Of a DNA stretch of 64,000 nt, positions 4,735 through 12,657 are shown in pieces (the first letter of the stretch is position 1; every line of letters starts with the position of its first letter). The translations under genes and the position numbers were made by a program. This DNA comes from an uncultured delta proteobacterium (lineage in GTDB: Bacteria; Desulfobacterota; Binatia; Binatales; Binataceae). The notes under the pieces were generated by a model. That model ran no database searches. It was not told where the DNA came from and saw only the letters and a program-made list of their open reading frames with translations. Location: NCBI GenBank assembly GCA_963724395.1, contig CAVRUK010000006.1, forward strand, positions 2,445,731 through 2,509,730, read 5' to 3'.

Positions 4735-5968
4735 ATAGAAACCAGCGCCGGTGTACGTATTGGGCGGAGCGCAAACCGACTTTGCCCGCAATTGGTCGAA
4801 AGAGGGAAAGCATTTCGTCGCGATGATGCGCGAGGCGACTTTGGGCGCGCTCGAGGCTACGAAAATCGAGCCGCGCGAAGTTGAGACAGCTCACGTCGGC
4901 AACTTCGCCGCCGAGCTGTACGCCAAGCAGGGACACATCGGCGCATTTTTCGTCGAGATCGATCCGGCTTTTTCAGGGCTGCCGACCAGCCGTCATGAGG
5001 CGGCATGTGCGTCGGGCTCGATCGCGCTGATCGCGGCGTCGGCTGAGATCGAAGCCGCGCGCTACGACCTGGCGTGCGTGGTCGGCGTCGAGCAAATGAA
5101 GACCGTCGATTCCACCACCGGCGGCGATTACCTGGGCACCGCGGCCTGGTACGAGCGCGAGGCCAAGGGAATCGAGTTCCCGTTTCCGAAACTGTTCGGC
5201 CGCCTCGGCGACGAGTACGACAAGCGCTACGGCCTGAAGGACGAACATCTCGCGCACATTTCGGCGGTGAACTATTCCAACGCCAAGCGCAATCCCAACG
5301 CGCAGACTCGCAACTGGTTCATGAGCGAGAGTCACGCACAGCACGAAAGCAAATTCAACCAGGTCATCGGCGGCCGCATCAAAGTGAGCGATTGCTCGCA
5401 AGTGACTGACGGCTCGGTCGCAATTTTCCTCGCGTCGGAAAAATTCGCGACCGCGTGGGCCAAGCGCAACGGCAAGACGCTCGCCGACATCCCGCGCATC
5501 CTCGGATGGGGCCATCACACGGCGCCGCTCGAATTCGACACCAAGGTTCTCGAGAGCCGCGACAACACCTACGTGCTGCCGCATACGCGACAGGCAATCG
5601 TCGACGCGTTCAAGCGCGCGGGCATCGCGGGCGTCGGCGAGTTGTCGGGAATCGAGACGCACGACTGCTTCACCACCTCCGAGTACATGGCGATCGACCA
5701 CTTCGGAATCACCAAGCCCGGCGAATCGTGGAAGGCGGTCGAGGAAGGCGTGATCGAGCTCGGCGGCAAGCTGCCGATCAATCCGAGCGGCGGGCTAATC
5801 GGCGCGGGCCATCCGGTCGGCGCGACGGGAGTGCGCCAGATGCTCGATTGCCATCGGCAGATAACGCATAGCGCGGGCGACTACCAGGTCGAGAATGCGA
5901 AAAAATTCGCGATGCTGAATATCGGCGGCAGCGGCACCACCAGCTGCGTGTTCATCGTCGGCAAATAA
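4735..5968 (+). CDS. Thiolase (acetyl-CoA acyltransferase, SCP-x-like)
   Basis: EAACASG, IETHDCFT, GHPVGATG; probable start reads AT(a)G-AAA-CCA 6 nt after AGGAG, with an extra base at 4737; next in-frame start is GTG 4751. Confidence 0.92.
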
Positions 5969-5989
5969 GCACGCGATTTGGAATATCTG

Positions 5990-6022
5990 AAGCGGCGGTC
6001 CCGAAACGGATCGCCGCTTTTT
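5990..6022 (+). terminator. Intrinsic terminator after thiolase
   Basis: AAGCGGCGGTCC-CGAAAC-GGATCGCCGCTT followed by a T tract. Confidence 0.8.
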
Positions 6023-6068
6023 CATTTTCCCGATTGGCTCGCGCGCGCCGGCGCGGCACAATCGCCAA

Positions 6069-6983
6069 ATGCCCTGGAAAACACCGTTTACTCTCGTCGA
6101 TGTCTTCACGTCGCGGCCCTTCGGCGGCAACCAGCTTGCGGTCTTTACCGACGCGGCCGCGCTCAGCGCGAGCGAGATGCAGGAGCTGGCGCATGAGATG
6201 AACTTCAGCGAATCGACGTTCGTGATGCCGCCCGAATCTTCGGGCGCGCGCCGCGTCAGGATCTTCACGCCGACGGTGGAAGTTCCGATGGCCGGACATC
6301 CCACCGTCGGCACGACCTGGGTGCTCGCGAGTCGAGGCGAAATCGCGCTCGCATCGGCAAGCGTCGATGCCACGTTGCAACTTGGAATCGGGCCGGTGAC
6401 GGTGACGGTCGAGAGCACTGGCGGCAAGCCGGACTTTGTCTGGATGGCGCATCGCGAGGCGGAATTCGGCGCGAAGCGTACCGATGGCGAGCGGTTCGCG
6501 GAAGCGATCGGAATCGTTGCGGCGGACATCCGCGGCGATCTGCCGATCCAAGTCGTCTCGACCGGCTTTCCGTTCGTTTTTGTCCCGCTCCGCAGTGTCG
6601 AAGCGCTCGGAAGATGCTATCCCAACAAGGTCGCGATCGCCTCGCTGTTCAAGGCGAGTCCGCGCGAGCAGCCGCCTCTCATATATATGTTTGTCGCGCA
6701 ACAGTCGGGCGAATTCTCCGTTCGGTCGCGGATGTTCGCGCCGTTTAACGGAATTGCGGAGGACCCGGCGACCGGAAGCGCTGCGGCTCCGTTCGGCGCA
6801 TACGCCGCGACCTACGGATTAATCAAACCCGCGCCCAAGACTGAATTCCTGATTCGGCAAGGCGTCGAGATGGGACGGCCTAGCGAGATTCGAGTCGAGG
6901 TCGTGCGCAAGGACAGTGGCGCGTTCGCGATCCGAATCGGCGGGCGATGCGCGATCGTCGGCGAAGGCGCGATGTTCCTCTAG
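6069..6983 (+). CDS. PhzF family isomerase/epimerase
   Basis: VDVFT..PFGGNQLAV, EMNFSESTFV, AGHPTVG, EDPATGSA, QGVEMGRPS. Confidence 0.93.
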   Translation: MPWKTPFTLVDVFTSRPFGGNQLAVFTDAAALSASEMQELAHEMNFSESTFVMPPESSGARRVRIFTPTVEVPMAGHPTVGTTWVLASRGEIALASASVDATLQLGIGPVTVTVESTGGKPDFVWMAHREAEFGAKRTDGERFAEAIGIVAADIRGDLPIQVVSTGFPFVFVPLRSVEALGRCYPNKVAIASLFKASPREQPPLIYMFVAQQSGEFSVRSRMFAPFNGIAEDPATGSAAAPFGAYAATYGLIKPAPKTEFLIRQGVEMGRPSEIRVEVVRKDSGAFAIRIGGRCAIVGEGAMFL

Positions 6984-7010
6984 AGCGCGGGCGCGACTAT
7001 TGTTGTGCGC

Positions 7011-7595
7011 ATGGACGAGAGCAAAATGCCGTCAGTAGGCGATCGCGCTCCTGAGTTCGCACTCGCCGACTCTACCGGCATCGTTCGCCGGCTCGACGAC
7101 CTGATCTCCCGGGGAATGTGCGTCGTCGTGTTCTACCGCGGACATTGGTGACCGTTTTGCCTCCGCCAGTTGGCGGACTACTCGGAGCATCTTGAGGATT
7201 TTCGCGCAGCCGGCGCCGAGCTGGTTGCGATTTCCGTGGACGACGCCGCTCGCACCGAGCCGGTGCGTCAGGAACTTGGCATCAAATTTCCGCTGCTATG
7301 CGACACGCGGCGCGAGGTCGTCAAGGCATACGGCTTGCTCAACAGCGGAGAGAAAGGCGGGATAGCATTTCCGGCTTCATTCGTGATCGATAGCAATCGC
7401 GTCGTGCAATTCCGCGCGCTGGAAGAAGTCGCATCGCGGGTCAGCGTGGACCAATTGCTGGGACTGGTGCGCGCACTCGAGCGTGGCACCGCACCGCAAA
7501 CCAAACCGCGTAAGCGCGGCGTCTTCCCCGGACTGATGTTCCTCCGCGCGACGATGAACGCACTTCGGCACGGCGTTACTTCCCCGAATAAGTAG
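7011..7595 (+). CDS. Putative selenoprotein, AhpC/TSA (peroxiredoxin-like) family, UxxC motif
   Basis: ATG 7011 reads MDESKMPSVGDRAPEFALAD...VVVFYRGHW-TGA(7149-7151)-PFCLRQLADY, in frame with track ORF 7170..7595; TGA replaces the first Cys of FYRGxWCPxC. Confidence 0.85.
7152..7178 (+). promoter_or_regulatory. Candidate bacterial SECIS hairpin
   Basis: TCCGCC-AGTT-GGCGGA stem-loop; loop begins 17 nt after the UGA, with G as 2nd loop nt. Confidence 0.55.
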
Positions 7596-7643
7596 CTTTC
7601 CATCGCGGTTTACCGAGCTTATGATTCAGCGCGCGAGGTCTGG

Positions 7644-8894
7644 ATGATTCGTCGGTATCTTGTCGCTCTCTTGTTTTTGCTTGCGGCCGTAATTACCGCG
7701 TGCGCCGGCGGCGGCGTGACCGAGGCGCCGCCGGCGTTCGTCACCAATCGGCAAGGCAACCGGGTCGAAGCGCTCGCGATGACCTCGCCGCGCGCCAACG
7801 CGGCCGCGATTCGGCTGCGCGACGGACGCATTCTGATCTGCGGCGGCACCGCGGCCGGCGAAATCGGTGGCGTGCTGTCGAGCGCCGAGCTGTACGATCC
7901 GGTCGCGCGCACCTTCACGCCGACCGGCGCGATGACCGTCCGGCGGGCCGGGCAAACGATCACGATGCTCCGCGACGGGCGTGTGCTGCTCACAGGCGGC
8001 GTCCAAAATGCCGGCTTTCGCTCGCAGCTCGCCAGCGCGGAGATTTACGATCCGAGCACCGGTGCCTTCAGCGCGACTGGCTCGATGTCGACGCCGCGCG
8101 AAGGTCATACTGCGACGATGCTTCGCGACGGGCGGGTGCTGGTCGTGGGCGGCAGCCCCAACGGCATCCAGACAACGGGCAGCGCCGAGATTTATGATCC
8201 AGCGAGCGGTACGTTCAGCCCCACGGGCCATCTGCACCAGCCGCGCGTCGCGCATGTCGCCGCTCTTCTCGGAACGGGCAAAGTACTGATCGCCGGCGGC
8301 GGCCGCGGCGGCATGCCGGGCGGCTATATCTCGTACGATACCGCCGAAATGTACGATACCTCCACGCGCAGCTTCACTACGATGCGCGCGCATATGAAGA
8401 GCGATCGCGTCGGCGCCGCCGCGGTCAAGCTGAACGACGGACGGGTGCTGATCGTCGGCGGCAAGAGCGGCAGAGTCATCGTCGGCATGCGCACTCTCGC
8501 TTCGATGGCGCCGCTGAACACCGCGGAAATTTACGATCCCGAGTCCGGCGCCTTCACCAAGACCGGCGACATGAGCGCGCCGCATTACCTCGCGACCGCG
8601 ACGATGCTCGACAGTGGAAATGTCCTCGTCGTCGGCGGTTGGACGATCAGGGGGCCGGTCGTCGTCGGGATGCGCGAAGCGGAAGTCTATCAGCCCGAAA
8701 CCAATCGGTTTTCGCACGTCGGCAGCACCAACGTCGCGCGCCTGACGAACACAGCGACCTTGATGAATGATGGCGAGGTGCTGATCGCCGGCGGCATCGC
8801 CGACAAAGCGCTGGTAACCGCCGCAGTCGAATTCTATTCTCCAAAGCAACATCGCTTTCTGATGCTTCCGGAAACTTCCCCGGCCACGGAATGA
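7644..8894 (+). CDS. Kelch-repeat beta-propeller lipoprotein
   Basis: Signal and lipobox (LAAVITAC); about 7 repeats of LxDGRVLxxGG...SAEIYDP..G.F. Confidence 0.88.
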   Translation: MIRRYLVALLFLLAAVITACAGGGVTEAPPAFVTNRQGNRVEALAMTSPRANAAAIRLRDGRILICGGTAAGEIGGVLSSAELYDPVARTFTPTGAMTVRRAGQTITMLRDGRVLLTGGVQNAGFRSQLASAEIYDPSTGAFSATGSMSTPREGHTATMLRDGRVLVVGGSPNGIQTTGSAEIYDPASGTFSPTGHLHQPRVAHVAALLGTGKVLIAGGGRGGMPGGYISYDTAEMYDTSTRSFTTMRAHMKSDRVGAAAVKLNDGRVLIVGGKSGRVIVGMRTLASMAPLNTAEIYDPESGAFTKTGDMSAPHYLATATMLDSGNVLVVGGWTIRGPVVVGMREAEVYQPETNRFSHVGSTNVARLTNTATLMNDGEVLIAGGIADKALVTAAVEFYSPKQHRFLMLPETSPATE

Positions 8895-10489
8895 ACGATT
8901 CGACGAAAAATTTGTTGCCCGCGTTCGAGTTGCGCGACGCGCGCGGGACCGCGCGCTCATTTCCATCCGGCCGAGCCGCGCTGCTCTGCTTCGTCAAGGA
9001 AGATTGCCCCACCTGCGGAATTACGATGCCGCTGATCGAGGCGGCGCATCGCGCCTTCGGTGCGTCCGTCGACATGTGGGCGATCGGCCAGGACCGCGAC
9101 GGCAATGCGAAACTCGTCGAGCGATACGCGCTGACCGTTCGGATGCTTGACGACTCCGCGCTGGGCGTCTCTTTTGCGTACGACCTCGACACGGTTCCGA
9201 CGATCATCCTTGCGGACGCGAATGGCCGCGAGCGGCGCCGCTTCGTCGGCTTCGGCCGCGACGACTGGCGCGAGATGTTCGCCGAGCTGTCGCAACTGTC
9301 GGGCCGGCCGTCGCCGGCCGTCGATTGGAATTCATATCCGGAGTCCCGGCCCGGATGCGGCTCCAGGTCCGTCGAGCCGGGAATCGCGGAACGCCTCGAG
9401 GCGAGCGCTCGCGGCGACAAGCTGACCGCGCGCCGAATCGAGCTCGGCGACGCCGAGGACGTATTCGAATTCATGTTCGAGCGCGGGCTGACTGACGGCT
9501 TGCCCGCGGTCCCGCCGACGCCCGAGCGCGTGATGTGGATGCTAACAGGGACACGGCGCGATCCGCGCGACGTGATCGCGACCGTGCCGCCGAATCTCGC
9601 TCCCGTGACGGTCGAGAAAGTCGCGGTCAACGCCGTGATGGCGGGATGCAAGCCCGAGTACCTGCCCGTGGTGATCGGCGCGCTCGAAGCGGTCTGCACC
9701 GACGAGTTCAACATCCACGGCATCATGTCCACGACCTGGGGGGCGACGCCCGTGATCGTCGTCAACGGTCCGATTCGCCACCGTCTCGATATGAACATGG
9801 GCATGATGGCGCTCGGCTACGGCACGCGCTCCAACGCAACCATCGGGCGCGCGCTGAAGCTCGTGTTGCGCAACGTCGGCGGCGCGCGGCCGGGCGAGAT
9901 CGAGCGCGCGACTCTCGGCGCACCCGGCAAATTCACGACCTGCTTCGCCGAGTGGGAGGAACGCAGTCCGTGGGAGCCGCTGCACGTCGAGCGCGGCTTC
10001 AACCGGGACGAAAACGTCGTGACAGTGTTCGGGCTTGAGGCGGGCTCGCGCCAGATTGCCGATCAGACTTCGCGAACGGCGCGCGCGCTGGCCGGCAGTC
10101 TCGGCATGGGGCTCGAAGCATGCTGGCATCCCAAGCAGCACAGCGCCGGCGAGATTCTGTTGATCATTTCGCCCGAGCATGCGGACACTCTCGCGCGCGA
10201 GAAATGGACCAAGGCGCAGGTTCGTGCGCGAATCCAGGAAGTCACGTCGCGGCCTATCCGCGATTTGATTCGCGACGACGACAGCGGCGAGGGAATTCCG
10301 CTGAGCGCACTCGGCGATGCGACTGAAGAACGGCTTGCGGAAAAGATTGCGAAGTTTCGCAGGCCGGAGGATATCAATATCATCGTGGCTGGCGGCAACG
10401 CGGGAAAATTCTCGGCGGTGTTCGCCGGATGGGTCTCGGGTCCGATGGGATCGTCCAGCGTCAGCCGGCGAATCGAGGAGGCAGCATGA
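8891..10489 (+). CDS. Thioredoxin-fold (TlpA/AhpC-like, CPTC) domain fused to a UGSC-associated uncharacterised domain
   Basis: N-terminal FVKEDCPTC...VPT, linker RPGCGS, C-terminal GLTDGLPAVPPTPERV...AVNAVMAGCKPEY; ATGA overlaps at both ends. Confidence 0.8.
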   Translation: MNDSTKNLLPAFELRDARGTARSFPSGRAALLCFVKEDCPTCGITMPLIEAAHRAFGASVDMWAIGQDRDGNAKLVERYALTVRMLDDSALGVSFAYDLDTVPTIILADANGRERRRFVGFGRDDWREMFAELSQLSGRPSPAVDWNSYPESRPGCGSRSVEPGIAERLEASARGDKLTARRIELGDAEDVFEFMFERGLTDGLPAVPPTPERVMWMLTGTRRDPRDVIATVPPNLAPVTVEKVAVNAVMAGCKPEYLPVVIGALEAVCTDEFNIHGIMSTTWGATPVIVVNGPIRHRLDMNMGMMALGYGTRSNATIGRALKLVLRNVGGARPGEIERATLGAPGKFTTCFAEWEERSPWEPLHVERGFNRDENVVTVFGLEAGSRQIADQTSRTARALAGSLGMGLEACWHPKQHSAGEILLIISPEHADTLAREKWTKAQVRARIQEVTSRPIRDLIRDDDSGEGIPLSALGDATEERLAEKIAKFRRPEDINIIVAGGNAGKFSAVFAGWVSGPMGSSSVSRRIEEAA

Positions 10490-11007
10490 AACAGGTAATA
10501 GTCGATCCGACCGACGAGCGCGTGCCGATTCGCCGCACGTTGGCGGCCCGCTCGGACACAATCGTTGGACGCGTGGCGCTGCTCGACATCGCCAAGCCGC
10601 GCGGCAACGTGCTGATCGACAGGCTCGCCGAGCATTTACATGACCGCATCCCCGGCGTCGAGATCAAGCGTTTTCGCAAACCAACCTTCACCAAGCCGGC
10701 GCCCGACGAGTTGCGCCGCCGGATCGCACAGGAGAGCGACTTCGTTATCGAAGCGCTAGCCGATTGAGGGTCATGCACAACGTGCAGTGTGCACGACTCC
10801 GTATGGTTCGAGACGAATAAGAAGCCCGCGGTTGTAATAGCATCCAGCGAGTTCGCTGACGCTGCGCAGAAACAGGCCGATGCGCTGGGATTGCCGGAAC
10901 TTCGCCGGGTATTCGTGCCGCATCCGATTCAGGACGCGACCGACGAGCAGATGCGCGCGAAGGCCGACGCGATCGTCAACGACGTGATCGCGGCGCTGAA
11001 GAATTGA
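10486..11007 (+). CDS. Putative UGSC-family selenoprotein
   Basis: MKQVIVDPT...VIEALAD-TGA(10765-10767)-GSCTTCSVHD...; joins track ORFs 10429..10767 and 10789..11007 in one frame. Confidence 0.87.
10768..10799 (+). promoter_or_regulatory. Candidate SECIS-like hairpin
   Basis: GGGTCATGCACA-ACGTGCAG-TGTGCACGACTC stem-loop directly after the UGA (one mismatch, one G-U). Confidence 0.45.
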
Positions 11008-12657
11008 TTATCGGATTAACGTCGAAGTCGATTCGGCGACCTCGGTGACCATCTTGCCGGTCTCTGAGAAAGTCGCGGCGGCGGGATCGTAGAGATCCGC
11101 AAAGCCCGACCTGCCGCCGGCGATGAGCGCGCTACCGCTCTCGAGCACGGTCGCAGTCGCGCCGGCGTGCACGTTGTGCATCGAGCCGGTGGCGGCAAAA
11201 GCAGCGTGGGCGGGATCGAACAGCTCGGCGCTCACCATGGTCTCCGGGTCACTGCCCTCACCGCCGGCGATCAGAACTTTGCCGTTCGCCAAAAATACCG
11301 CGGCTTGAAGCGTGCGCGCGGTCGTCATCGCGCCGACCGGTGAAAACGTTTCCGTCTGAGGATTGAAAACCTCCGCGCTGTCGCTCGGCGCGCTCGCGTC
11401 GCCGCCGCCCGCAACCAGCACGTCACCCGCGAGCGTACCCGTGACGACGCTCGGCGACAACCAGGTGGCGCTGTGATTCTCGCGCGGCGTACTCATCCTG
11501 CCCGCCGGCGTGAACTGCCCGGTGACCGGATCGTAAAGTTCGGCCGTGGCGACGTCGCCGTTGCTTTCATCGCTGGCGCCGCCCGTGACCAGCACGTTTC
11601 CCGCCAGTGGCCCGCTGGCAATCAGCGTCGCCGAGTGGTGCGCGCGTGTCGCCTTCATCGCGCCGATCGAGTTAAATTTGCCGGTGACGGGGTTGTACAG
11701 CTCCGCGCTCCTTAGAGTGTATCCGAGCGACCCGGTTGCCGTGGTGCCTCCCGCGAGCAACACCTGGCCATCAGCCGGGCAGTTGCACCCGGAAATGAGT
11801 GTCGCCGTATGGCCGGCACGGACTGTGTTCATCTGCGACGCGATCACGGAAAATTTTCCGCTGGCCGGGTCGTACAATTCAGCCGACGACAGCGAGCGGC
11901 CCGACGGTCCTTCGCCACCCGCCACCAGAACCTTGCCGCCCGGCAACACGGTAGCCGTAAGATCGGTGCGCGCGTCCTTCATCGACGGTGCGACTGCGAA
12001 TGCATTTTTGACCGGGTCGAAAAGCTCCGCGCTCGAGAGCGCAGATTGCCCGTCGCCCTGCCCGCCCGCCAGCAGCACGAAACCGGAATGCGGCGACAAA
12101 TCGGGTTGTCCGACCGGCGGATTGACGGTTGCAGCGACCGGAGGATTGATCCCGCCGCCCGATACGACTGGCGAACTCGGCGCAGATCCTCGCGTCGGTG
12201 AAGTCAGCGGCGCCGAGACGCCACCGGTTGCGCTCGTCGAAATCAGTCCGGGAGCCTGAACGTTGCCGCCAACGACTGGAGCCGCACTGCCCTGAACATT
12301 CCATACTCCTGCCGGCGGGGCGCCAGGAATGGCGCGCGGCAAATCCGGAACCATCTCGACCATCGCCGTGTTGCCTGACTGTTTTTTGGGCTTGGATGGC
12401 GCAAATCCAATCTGTAGAGGAAGCGCGCTTGCGGCGGGAGACGCGTGGCGCGCGACAGCCGCCGTGCTTGATGTTGCTAGTCGAGATGTTGAATCGTGGT
12501 TGTCGGGGTGGAGCGGCGCAGACGTTATCTGAGCAAAATGACGACCATCAACCTGGCCGCGGTCGAGCGCGAATAGTACAGCAATGGCGCTCACGGCAAT
12601 CACTGCGCCGGCAAGCAGCGCATCACGCATCAGCGGTCTATCTCTCAACTCTGCCAT
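11008..12657 (-). CDS. Membrane-anchored/exported Kelch-repeat protein with Pro/Ser-rich linker
   Basis: N-terminal hydrophobic segment, low-complexity linker, repeated VLxAGG...SAELYDP..G.F. Confidence 0.85.
   Translation of the reverse strand: MAELRDRPLMRDALLAGAVIAVSAIAVLFALDRGQVDGRHFAQITSAPLHPDNHDSTSRLATSSTAAVARHASPAASALPLQIGFAPSKPKKQSGNTAMVEMVPDLPRAIPGAPPAGVWNVQGSAAPVVGGNVQAPGLISTSATGGVSAPLTSPTRGSAPSSPVVSGGGINPPVAATVNPPVGQPDLSPHSGFVLLAGGQGDGQSALSSAELFDPVKNAFAVAPSMKDARTDLTATVLPGGKVLVAGGEGPSGRSLSSAELYDPASGKFSVIASQMNTVRAGHTATLISGCNCPADGQVLLAGGTTATGSLGYTLRSAELYNPVTGKFNSIGAMKATRAHHSATLIASGPLAGNVLVTGGASDESNGDVATAELYDPVTGQFTPAGRMSTPRENHSATWLSPSVVTGTLAGDVLVAGGGDASAPSDSAEVFNPQTETFSPVGAMTTARTLQAAVFLANGKVLIAGGEGSDPETMVSAELFDPAHAAFAATGSMHNVHAGATATVLESGSALIAGGRSGFADLYDPAAATFSETGKMVTEVAESTSTLIR

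Follow-up and report, generated by a model that had tools for sequence, protein, structure and literature searches.

In the Grd and Prd systems, the attack of a selenocysteine (Sec) on the bound substrate is followed by a thiol-driven release, and the Grd system is recharged by thioredoxin. The UGSC family was treated by Zhang & Gladyshev in 2007/2008, the 2007 paper naming Hyphomonas neptunium as a carrier, and the accessible part of one early account gives it as a selenoprotein without known function (PMC1976440). The accessible portions of the Global Ocean Sampling (GOS) survey of 2008 (PMC2398784) list UGSC as a major family of the UxxC type, counting 255 selenoproteins against 21 Cys homologs and meeting it most often in non-marine samples; a thioredoxin (Trx)-like fold was considered likely, and a 'UGSC/Unknown_1 fusion' appears in Figure S1A, in which Unknown_1 may correspond to the partner domain of the present study. 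Table 2 of that survey, within the same portions, gives 225 selenoproteins and 2,740 Cys homologs for the peroxiredoxin-like (Prx-like) UxxC kind. In the available sections of two reviews, of 2022 and 2026 (PMC9312934, PMC13188914), UGSC is listed with functions 'largely uncharacterized'. The locus described here encodes one protein of each of these two kinds, and lies in a 64,000-nucleotide stretch of DNA, referred to as the window, from an uncultured delta proteobacterium of the family Binataceae, class Binatia (assembly GCA_963724395.1, contig CAVRUK010000006.1, positions 2,445,731 to 2,509,730).

Coordinates refer to the whole window, in which open reading frames (ORFs) were called with table 11 and again with TGA read as U. 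Five plus-strand genes are packed into positions 6069-11007 and encode, in order, a PhzF-family protein, a Prx-like protein, a Kelch lipoprotein, a two-domain protein (gene 4) and UGSC. An earlier note on this DNA (the original prediction) had taken all five for one selenium-dependent system. On sequence comparison the real entity is a two-gene unit in which a catalogued selenoprotein is coupled with an unnamed partner domain, to which a thioredoxin-like domain is fused in the window. The partner domain and UGSC probably make up a two-part selenoenzyme that is recharged via the fused CPTC thioredoxin-like domain, the other three genes being neighbours. In place of a system of five genes, the window is thus seen to hold a core of two, flanked by genes specific to the lineage. 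The features of the two-gene unit are as follows.

8891..10489, + strand: gene 4 (whole), a thioredoxin-like domain fused to a family-less domain
8891..9337, + strand: N-terminal thioredoxin/TlpA-like domain of gene 4 with CPTC; weak Redoxin, AhpC-TSA and ResA matches
9338..10489, + strand: C-terminal partner domain of gene 4, ~380 residues, no named family; motifs GxTDGLPVVPPT, NAVMAGC and GxRANATIGRA
10486..11007, + strand: UGSC-family selenoprotein gene, 173 residues, supported by NF041046 and PF24696 scores; predicted flavodoxin-like fold
10765..10767, + strand: in-frame TGA of the UGSC gene, read as a Sec codon, context EALAD-U-GSCTTC; TGA kept in orthologs
10781..10795, + strand: core of the UGSC selenocysteine insertion sequence (SECIS) hairpin, CGUGCA-GUG-UGCACG, supported by alignment covariation

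The partner domain and UGSC were adjacent and on the same strand in all 20 loci taken from 20 genomes, each covering about 20 kb around the best UGSC match, and in seven loci from other families of the class the two proteins were 47-53% identical to those of the window. At 36 further, paralogous loci, 36 of 37 UGSC copies had a partner-domain neighbour on the same strand, in either order (three of these 36 pairs were placed via coordinates from the whole-genome UGSC search). In Binataceae the partner was followed by UGSC in 59 of 63 loci, the misses being three loci at a contig end and one split gene. Outside the class the pair was adjacent in all five assessable loci, which came from Dehalococcoidia, Xanthobacteraceae (two), Alphaproteobacteria and Gammaproteobacteria metagenome-assembled genomes (MAGs), with UGSC preceding the partner in four of them. 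A conserved context around the pair was sought outside Binataceae and rejected, as the flanks vary from locus to locus. These comparisons show the C-terminal domain of gene 4 together with UGSC to be the only unit conserved beyond Binataceae. The original prediction had placed a UGSC partner in gene 4, which is upheld by adjacency or fusion across several phyla; of the conserved linkage that it had called for, the part between partner and UGSC extends across phyla, but that of the five genes does not reach beyond Binataceae. Some genomes of the class contain up to 12 UGSC copies, and in the genome of the window the partner and UGSC are each encoded by a single gene.

The two proteins are also found fused. 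Of 61 longer representatives of the partner family, 24 carry UGSC at the N- or C-terminus: six have the whole domain N-terminal, 11 the post-TGA half N-terminal and seven the pre-TGA half C-terminal. The half-domains arise because gene callers cut Sec-containing fusions at the TGA. Full-length natural Cys fusions (…DCGSC…) are represented by P0259 and P0226, and the partner ORF of locus L049 continues into UGSC as far as the TGA. A further seven of the 61 contain AhpC-TSA/Redoxin domains, one (P0150) has an N-terminal fusion to the ferredoxin:thioredoxin reductase catalytic beta chain (FeThRed_B, PF02943, 76 bits), and 29, including tandem duplicates of ~710 residues, had no Pfam match. Thioredoxin-like and ferredoxin:thioredoxin-reductase-type domains have thus been fused to the partner repeatedly.

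Gene 4 of one MAG is in two pieces (L103 and L155, on the same contig): residues 1-453 are separated by ~48-62 kb from residues 451-531 plus UGSC, which is either a rearrangement or an assembly artefact. In one MAG a second, more diverged and fragmented Kelch-gene 4-UGSC copy directly follows the first (L129:9988-12625); many matches in this record are split as if by frameshifts.

The N-terminal region of gene 4 weakly resembles thioredoxin-fold proteins. Residues 9-122 scored 23.2 bits with Redoxin and 23.6 bits with AhpC-TSA, just under the cut-offs of 26.6 and 26, and PDB entry 2l5o, a 'putative thioredoxin', matched the N-terminus with an E-value of 3e-4. In relatives, the thioredoxin-like domains fused to the partner do pass the AhpC-TSA/Redoxin cut-offs, and the CxxC motif of the fused domain was kept in 77 of 77 homologs (CPTC in 73, CATC in four). 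Residues ~150-532 had no Pfam or NCBIfam match, a Pfam search at E up to 10 with 47 partner sequences (gene 4 and 46 relatives) gave no further family, and a PDB sequence search with gene 4 returned thioredoxin-like matches to the N-terminus only.

The partner domain could be modelled from 47 aligned sequences with a predicted local distance difference test score (pLDDT) of 92.2 and a predicted template modelling score (pTM) of 0.90. Invariant or near-invariant positions are D53-G-L-P, P59-P-T, N98-x-V-M-A-G-C104, G160-x-G-x-R-x-N166, G170-R, C202-x-x-E205 and P211-W. At 50% identity the family divides into 5387 clusters (E up to 1e-3) or 1372 (E up to 1e-30), and its members are mostly stand-alone proteins of 340-370 residues. 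A look-up in the ESM Atlas gave unnamed clusters only, one of which has UGSC on 16% of its members.

The UGSC product of the window scored 159.5 bits with NF041046 (cut-off 125) and 156.7 bits with PF24696 (cut-off 25). Its model is a five-stranded flavodoxin-like alpha/beta domain (pLDDT 95.9) in which the Sec opens the helix that follows strand 3, and the structure search gave generic matches to azoreductases and flavodoxins with a template modelling (TM) score of ~0.5. The conserved residues are the U, G at +1, C at +3, D at +10, a Phe and an HP motif. A PDB sequence search with UGSC gave nothing meaningful, and Pfam at E up to 10 on 40 UGSC sequences found no family beyond UGSC itself.

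Selenoproteins of the GrdB and PrdB type were compared with UGSC, 15 loci being fetched and read from a PF07355 search of the class relatives. Full-length GrdB-like genes were present among L158-L169, with the PF07355 match ending exactly before an in-frame TGA (…VILTST-U-GTSTRSG…), and PrdB-like selenoproteins of ~280-300 residues (…LVPA-U-PVC…) were found in 10 of the 15 loci. The GrdB-like gene of L164 reads …LTSA-U-GSC…, the same tetrapeptide as in the UGSC family. In the genome of the window, at ~423.5 kb of contig C2 of G000 (L170:491-1354, + strand), there is a PrdB-like selenoprotein, …FFLVPA-U-PVCHQS…, which matches the C-terminal part of GRDB, and PrdB-like genes with U-P-V-C occur in nine further genomes of the class, out of many short GRDB matches. 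UGSC, GrdB-like and PrdB-like proteins are alike in a strand followed by U-x-x-C/S, a Glu at +15 and G-x-P at +18 to +20. Alignment of 40 UGSC sequences with the Sec domains of 19 PF07355 sequences in hhalign gave a probability of 86%, under the usual 95% line, with an E-value of 4.9e-6 over 68 columns and U placed on U; control comparisons with a CxxC Prx-like alignment gave 0.4% for UGSC and 0.6% for the GRDB set. The partner domain scored less than 1% against the GRDB alignments and is unrelated to them. UGSC is therefore probably a remote relative of the Sec module of GrdB/PrdB, and of that module only.

The neighbours of the paralogous pairs include MmgE/PrpD, bicupins, TctA/TctC, solute-binding proteins, luciferase-like oxygenases, DsbA-like proteins and glutathione S-transferases (GSTs), together with two thioredoxin-reductase-sized flavoproteins. 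In L073-L077 (contigs C35, C44 and C88 of G038) several UGSC-partner pairs occur per 20-30 kb, interleaved with MmgE/PrpD, bicupin, TctA/TctC and solute-binding genes, an electron transfer flavoprotein (ETF) subunit and a thioredoxin-reductase-sized flavoprotein. The neighbours, largely from the single genome G038, give hints of small organic-acid substrates for the paralogous pairs.

In the mechanism proposed, the partner domain and UGSC would together form one enzyme, with the large partner domain binding the substrate, probably a small organic molecule. Within the flavodoxin-like domain of UGSC, the Sec/Cys pair at the head of a helix would perform a two-electron reductive step and end as a selenenyl-sulfide. 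The fused CPTC domain, or free thioredoxin where this domain is absent, would then re-reduce UGSC, drawing on the thioredoxin system of the cell. More tentatively, the pair may represent a new class of selenoenzyme, a possibility that we hold to fall somewhat short of probable: a stand-alone relative of the Grd/Prd Sec module would dock onto a 350-residue catalytic domain with a fold unseen in solved structures, powered by thioredoxin-type domains, and many paralogs would reductively convert small organic acids or related metabolites.

Several observations weigh against the two-part enzyme or its kinship to GrdB. The term enzyme for the partner is inferred from size, conservation and paralog expansion, because the domain has no recognisable fold: Foldseek against the PDB returned nothing at E ≤1e-3 (best E 2.5e-3, TM 0.25), and the wide VIA structure search of 48,161 representative chains reached a Z of 5.4 at best, for HypA and chorismate mutase. 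The sub-threshold Foldseek rows named class-I fumarate hydratase and cyanuric-acid-hydrolase; no fold assignment was drawn from any of these matches. One of the 37 extra UGSC copies has no partner nearby, and a 350-residue ORF beside it was tested as a hidden partner and is not one. The likeness between UGSC and GrdB is confined to the Sec loop and the next alpha-beta-alpha: hhalign of UGSC against GRDB positions 1-347, upstream of the Sec, gave 0.3%, and none of the 40 UGSC sequences matched PF07355 in hmmscan at E up to 10. Membership of UGSC in the GrdB/PrdB family (PF07355) was rejected on the missing hmmscan match and the dissimilar N-terminal half, and UxxCxxC was discarded as a signature in common with GrdB, as the residue at +6 of UGSC varies (C, W, S, G or A). 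The frequency of Kelch genes beside the pair in Binataceae, given below, would suit a functional tie to Kelch.

One alternative holds that the partner and UGSC are a redox relay, a sensor or a selenium/metal-handling pair that does not turn over a substrate, such as a disulfide reductase specialised for a protein target or a reactive-species carrier. Such a relay would be in keeping with the small size of UGSC, whose flavodoxin-like domain has a UxxC centre of the sort found in many thiol-disulfide carriers, with the fusions of the partner to thioredoxin-like and FeThRed_B domains, with the near-invariant Cys residues C104 and C202 of the partner, and with the lack of any recognised catalytic motif in the partner in the Pfam, Foldseek and VIA searches. 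The size of the partner family at E up to 1e-3 and the many UGSC copies per genome look instead like substrate diversification, the catabolism and transport genes next to these copies (MmgE/PrpD, bicupins, TctA/TctC, solute-binding proteins and luciferase-like oxygenases) argue against a relay, and a Sec loop resembling that of GrdB/PrdB suggests the chemistry of a reductase. A relay is thus considered unlikely, and the two-part enzyme is retained as the preferred reading of the pair.

The next alternative is that of the original prediction, in which the five genes form one selenium-dependent redox system tied to the envelope through the Kelch propeller. The features upstream of the pair are listed here.

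5989..6020, + strand: terminator-like hairpin with a T run, lying between PhzF and the preceding thiolase gene, 13-pair stem with 8 G-C pairs and a T-rich tail; consensus match only
6069..6983, + strand: PhzF-family isomerase gene, 304 residues; TIGR00654 221.7 bits (cut-off 76.2), PF02567 211.4 bits
7005..7595, + strand: Prx-like (AhpC/TSA fold) selenoprotein gene, 196 residues, motif W-U-P-F-C; PF00578 104.4 bits (cut-off 26)
7149..7151, + strand: in-frame TGA of the Prx-like gene, read as a Sec codon, context FYRGHW-U-PFCLRQL; TGA kept in orthologs
7162..7177, + strand: SECIS-like hairpin of the Prx-like gene, UCCGCC-AGUU-GGCGGA, beginning 10 nt past the UGA
7644..8894, + strand: Kelch-repeat beta-propeller gene, 416 residues, lipoprotein-type N-terminus; Kelch_1 99.7 bits, Kelch repeats only

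The description of five co-oriented, tightly packed genes with the last three joined by ATGA overlaps was accurate: the ORF lists gave gaps of 21 nt between PhzF and the Prx-like gene and 48 nt between the Prx-like gene and Kelch, and -4 at both the Kelch/gene 4 and gene 4/UGSC junctions, each of which is an ATGA overlap. The Prx-like and UGSC ORFs are open only with TGA readthrough and are both split by ordinary gene calling. In a scan for the terminator consensus, the cluster contained a single weak terminator-like match and nothing comparable to the strong hairpin at 5989-6020, which is likely the 5' boundary of the transcription unit; the three neighbour genes may be co-transcribed with the pair. 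This packing, the two overlaps and the position of the terminator-like matches favour a single five-gene system.

The layout was counted in loci from a gene 4 scan of GTDB species genomes, which gave 69 loci, mostly Candidatus Binatus or Binataceae, with some genomes overlapping the 20-genome set. The counts below are for the 45 Binataceae loci in which partner identity is 70% or more and the upstream sequence spans 4.5 kb or more.

All 45 loci: Kelch in 42, Prx-like in 37, PhzF in 29, all three in 24
Partner identity at least 86% (23 loci): Kelch in 21, Prx-like in 21, PhzF in 21, all three in 21
Partner identity 70-85% (22 loci): Kelch in 21, Prx-like in 16, PhzF in 8, all three in 3

In these loci the Kelch gene was recognised upstream of gene 4 down to ~50% Kelch identity, which favours a tie to the pair. 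About six Kelch loci are present in the genome of the window and two of them flank the pair, and other beta-propeller genes (NHL, SGL) stand beside three of the 36 paralogous loci, which likewise favours a tie. The second flanking gene, at 11008-12657 on the - strand, encodes a Kelch-repeat protein with an N-terminal membrane anchor and a Ser/Pro/Ala-rich linker; it converges on UGSC without a spacer, the two stop codons abutting at 11007/11008.

Set against this, the hydroxyacyl-CoA dehydrogenase and thiolase genes upstream and the gene downstream are conserved equally well in Binataceae, and because these unrelated flanking genes are kept just as well, the five-gene layout is explained as inherited block synteny, with which the persistence of Kelch is equally compatible. 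The three accessory genes stay together in few of the loci at 70-85% identity, as counted above, and the gap between Kelch and gene 4 was no more than 60 nt in only 20 of the 45. Among same-genus loci of the 20-genome set, Kelch, Prx-like and PhzF genes were near the pair in 12 of 13; in the exception, G011 (L037/L141), the pair is surrounded by unrelated genes (TetR, luciferase-like, hydrolase). In the closest locus, L089, with 97% identity in the partner domain, a 1.45-kb insertion (L089:5551-7000) separates Kelch from gene 4. The insertion contains ORFs of 204 residues (- strand) and 114 residues (+ strand, hydrophobic). No Kelch, Prx-like or PhzF gene was found by the pair in any of the seven loci from other families of the class or the five from other phyla or classes. 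The compartments would also differ. The Kelch product has a putative lipobox, read by eye as …AVITA before the Cys (MIRRYLVALLFLLAAVITA followed by C) and also kept in L089, and by eye no signal peptide was seen in the PhzF, Prx-like, gene 4 or UGSC products. The comparison of neighbourhoods across related MAGs therefore went against a five-gene system: the pair is conserved, and the arrangement around it is synteny confined to Binataceae. A single five-gene system is accordingly rated as quite improbable, and we infer that PhzF, Prx-like and Kelch are lineage-specific neighbours inherited with the chromosomal block and not needed for the two-gene unit.

The machinery for decoding TGA as Sec was sought in the genome of the window (4.97 Mb, 6 contigs, 93% complete). 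Matches that cleared their curated cut-offs were obtained there for selA (564 bits), for selB (374 bits) and for selD (379 bits), and the genome also has a tRNA-SeC gene (anticodon tca). On contig C2 of G000, selB (496862-498757) adjoins selD (498858-499784) and the tRNA-Sec gene (401406-401500) is ~95 kb off; selA is on a separate contig, C5. The selD gene has one in-frame TGA, and its product is likely Sec-containing itself.

At the UGSC site, TGA was present in 56 of 57 aligned copies (the window and L033-L088) and TGC in one, and TGA in all 63 loci of a second set, the two sets overlapping partly in genomes. The single TGC (Cys) copy is without the hairpin. A whole-genome search of 61 relatives, a tally that includes one unpublished genome (G023) used nowhere else, gave a UGSC match in 42 (28 of 43 high-quality genomes), and among the 73 UGSC matches listed from relatives 70 had exactly one TGA. 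The hairpin after the UGSC codon, scored on the 56 TGA copies, has eight pairs and a GUN loop and starts 14 nt past the UGA. The covariation figures refer to columns 15-22 and 26-33 of the alignment, of which the window pairs columns 17-22 and 26-31. Paired cells amounted to 87.8%, compared with 77.5% in shuffles, double-sided changes were seen in seven of the eight pairs, none of 500 shuffles reached any of five measures, and every slid register scored lower. In a typical compensation, a UGC to UGG change (Cys to Trp) is coupled to a synonymous GUG to GUC change in the opposite Val codon.

At the Prx-like site, TGA was kept in 13 of 13 and in 41 of 41 orthologs (two sets), down to 46% protein identity. 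The hairpin UCCGCC-AGUU-GGCGGA is nearly invariant among these orthologs, and because its sequence hardly varies covariation is not demonstrable; in the L142 ortholog both sides of one pair are changed and the pair is kept as G-U. Among 42 distinct sequences the third-base entropy was 0 at codons +6 to +8 (CAG UUG GCG), inside the hairpin, and 0.8-1.6 at the equally invariant F, Y, R, G, H and Y outside it, which points to a constraint at the RNA level on the frozen synonymous codons.

For both genes the frame is conserved before as well as after the TGA. The folding energies of the two hairpins were ordinary on the single sequence (z of 0.29 and -1.00), and an Rfam scan of 5900-11200 gave just one chance microRNA match below threshold, with the bacterial SECIS models unmatched. 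Since the machinery is present, the TGAs are conserved and the hairpins are backed by covariation or frozen synonymous sites, the comparative data show both in-frame TGAs to be Sec codons, and the window to encode two true selenoproteins. The original prediction had put an in-frame TGA at a redox-Cys position in two genes, each followed by a stem-loop, and had proposed a search for the Sec machinery and an alignment of Sec and Cys homologs; all of this agrees with what was found, and both the AhpC-like UxxC and the UGSC proteins do belong to families already catalogued as selenoproteins. That the TGAs represent genuine stops, errors of sequencing or lesions of pseudogenes and the split ORFs are real, as the split gene calls and ordinary single-sequence energies might suggest, is extremely improbable and already contradicted by the orthologs that keep TGA at exactly these codons (with one TGC among the UGSC copies), the frames conserved on either side, the covariation in UGSC and synonymous-site constraint in the Prx-like gene, the complete Sec machinery and a UGSC family score that exceeds its curated cut-off only with TGA readthrough.

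The Prx-like product reached no NCBIfam model at its cut-off, the best being ResA (58.1 of 170) and peroxiredoxin (55.1 of 211). When solved peroxiredoxins are aligned with it, their peroxidatic Cys matches the second Cys of U-P-F-C, and their conserved Thr, three residues earlier, matches U. As the Sec takes the position of the Thr and not that of the peroxidatic Cys, the protein is of the 'Prx-like, UxxC' type (ResA-like CxxC) and not a TxxU peroxiredoxin; for the same reason, the Sec replacing the Thr of PxxxTxxC, peroxidase activity is uncertain. A peroxiredoxin proper (PxxxTxxC) was rejected on the equivalog score and the Sec at the Thr position. The alignments show gene 2 to encode a Prx-like thiol-disulfide oxidoreductase selenoprotein with the motif W-U-P-F-C. 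Prx-like homologs with and without the TGA are both present in the class. Beyond the AhpC/TSA domain, window positions 7480-7592 encode a C-terminal tail of ~35 residues (…VWPGxMFLRATMNxLRRG…), kept in orthologs at ~50% identity.

The statement of the original prediction that UGSC and its partner have no assigned function agrees with the accessible text of the literature (PMC2398784, PMC1976440, PMC9312934, PMC13188914). Its view of the arrangement as undescribed was partly right: a UGSC/'Unknown_1' fusion was already printed in 2008, but the pairing and the thioredoxin-type fusions are undescribed in the literature searched, as far as its accessible text extends. In the accessible full-text literature on UGSC selenoproteins no account was found of the near-constant pairing, the thioredoxin-type fusions or the likeness to GrdB/PrdB, and a full-text literature search gave nothing linking Binatia with selenocysteine. 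That UGSC almost never occurs without one unnamed partner domain provides a concrete, testable pair for co-expression. If the proposed class is real, it would have diversified in aerobic soil and water bacteria, and the pair would give a first function for one of the most abundant environmental selenoprotein families.

When the two selenoproteins of the window are compared with known systems, the Prx-like protein has in common with Prx-like 1 (UxxC, pfam00578) the AhpC/TSA fold and a W-U-x-x-C at the CxxC position. It differs from ResA/TlpA-type oxidoreductases and peroxiredoxins in scoring below every curated NCBIfam cut-off, and from known Prx-like/ResA proteins in its extra conserved C-terminal tail. 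The UGSC protein of the window shares with its family (PF24696, NF041046) the U-G-S-C motif, the TGA at U and the SECIS hairpin. Its predicted fold is flavodoxin-like, whereas a Trx-like fold was suggested in the accessible part of the 2008 survey (PMC2398784), and its partner is a separate gene with a thioredoxin-like domain of its own, unlike the 'UGSC/Unknown_1 fusion' given there. With respect to the Grd and Prd systems, gene 4 and its 46 relatives had no Gly_reductase-type Pfam match at E up to 10, as would mark the pyruvoyl partners GrdE/PrdA, GrdB has N-terminal ~210 residues that UGSC lacks, and the genome of the window holds a PrdB-like selenoprotein separately from UGSC. In GrdB/GrdF/GrdH and PrdB, as in UGSC, the U-x-x-C/S motif places the Sec where a helix begins after a beta-strand, and GrdB/PrdB work with a larger partner protein, as UGSC presumably does.

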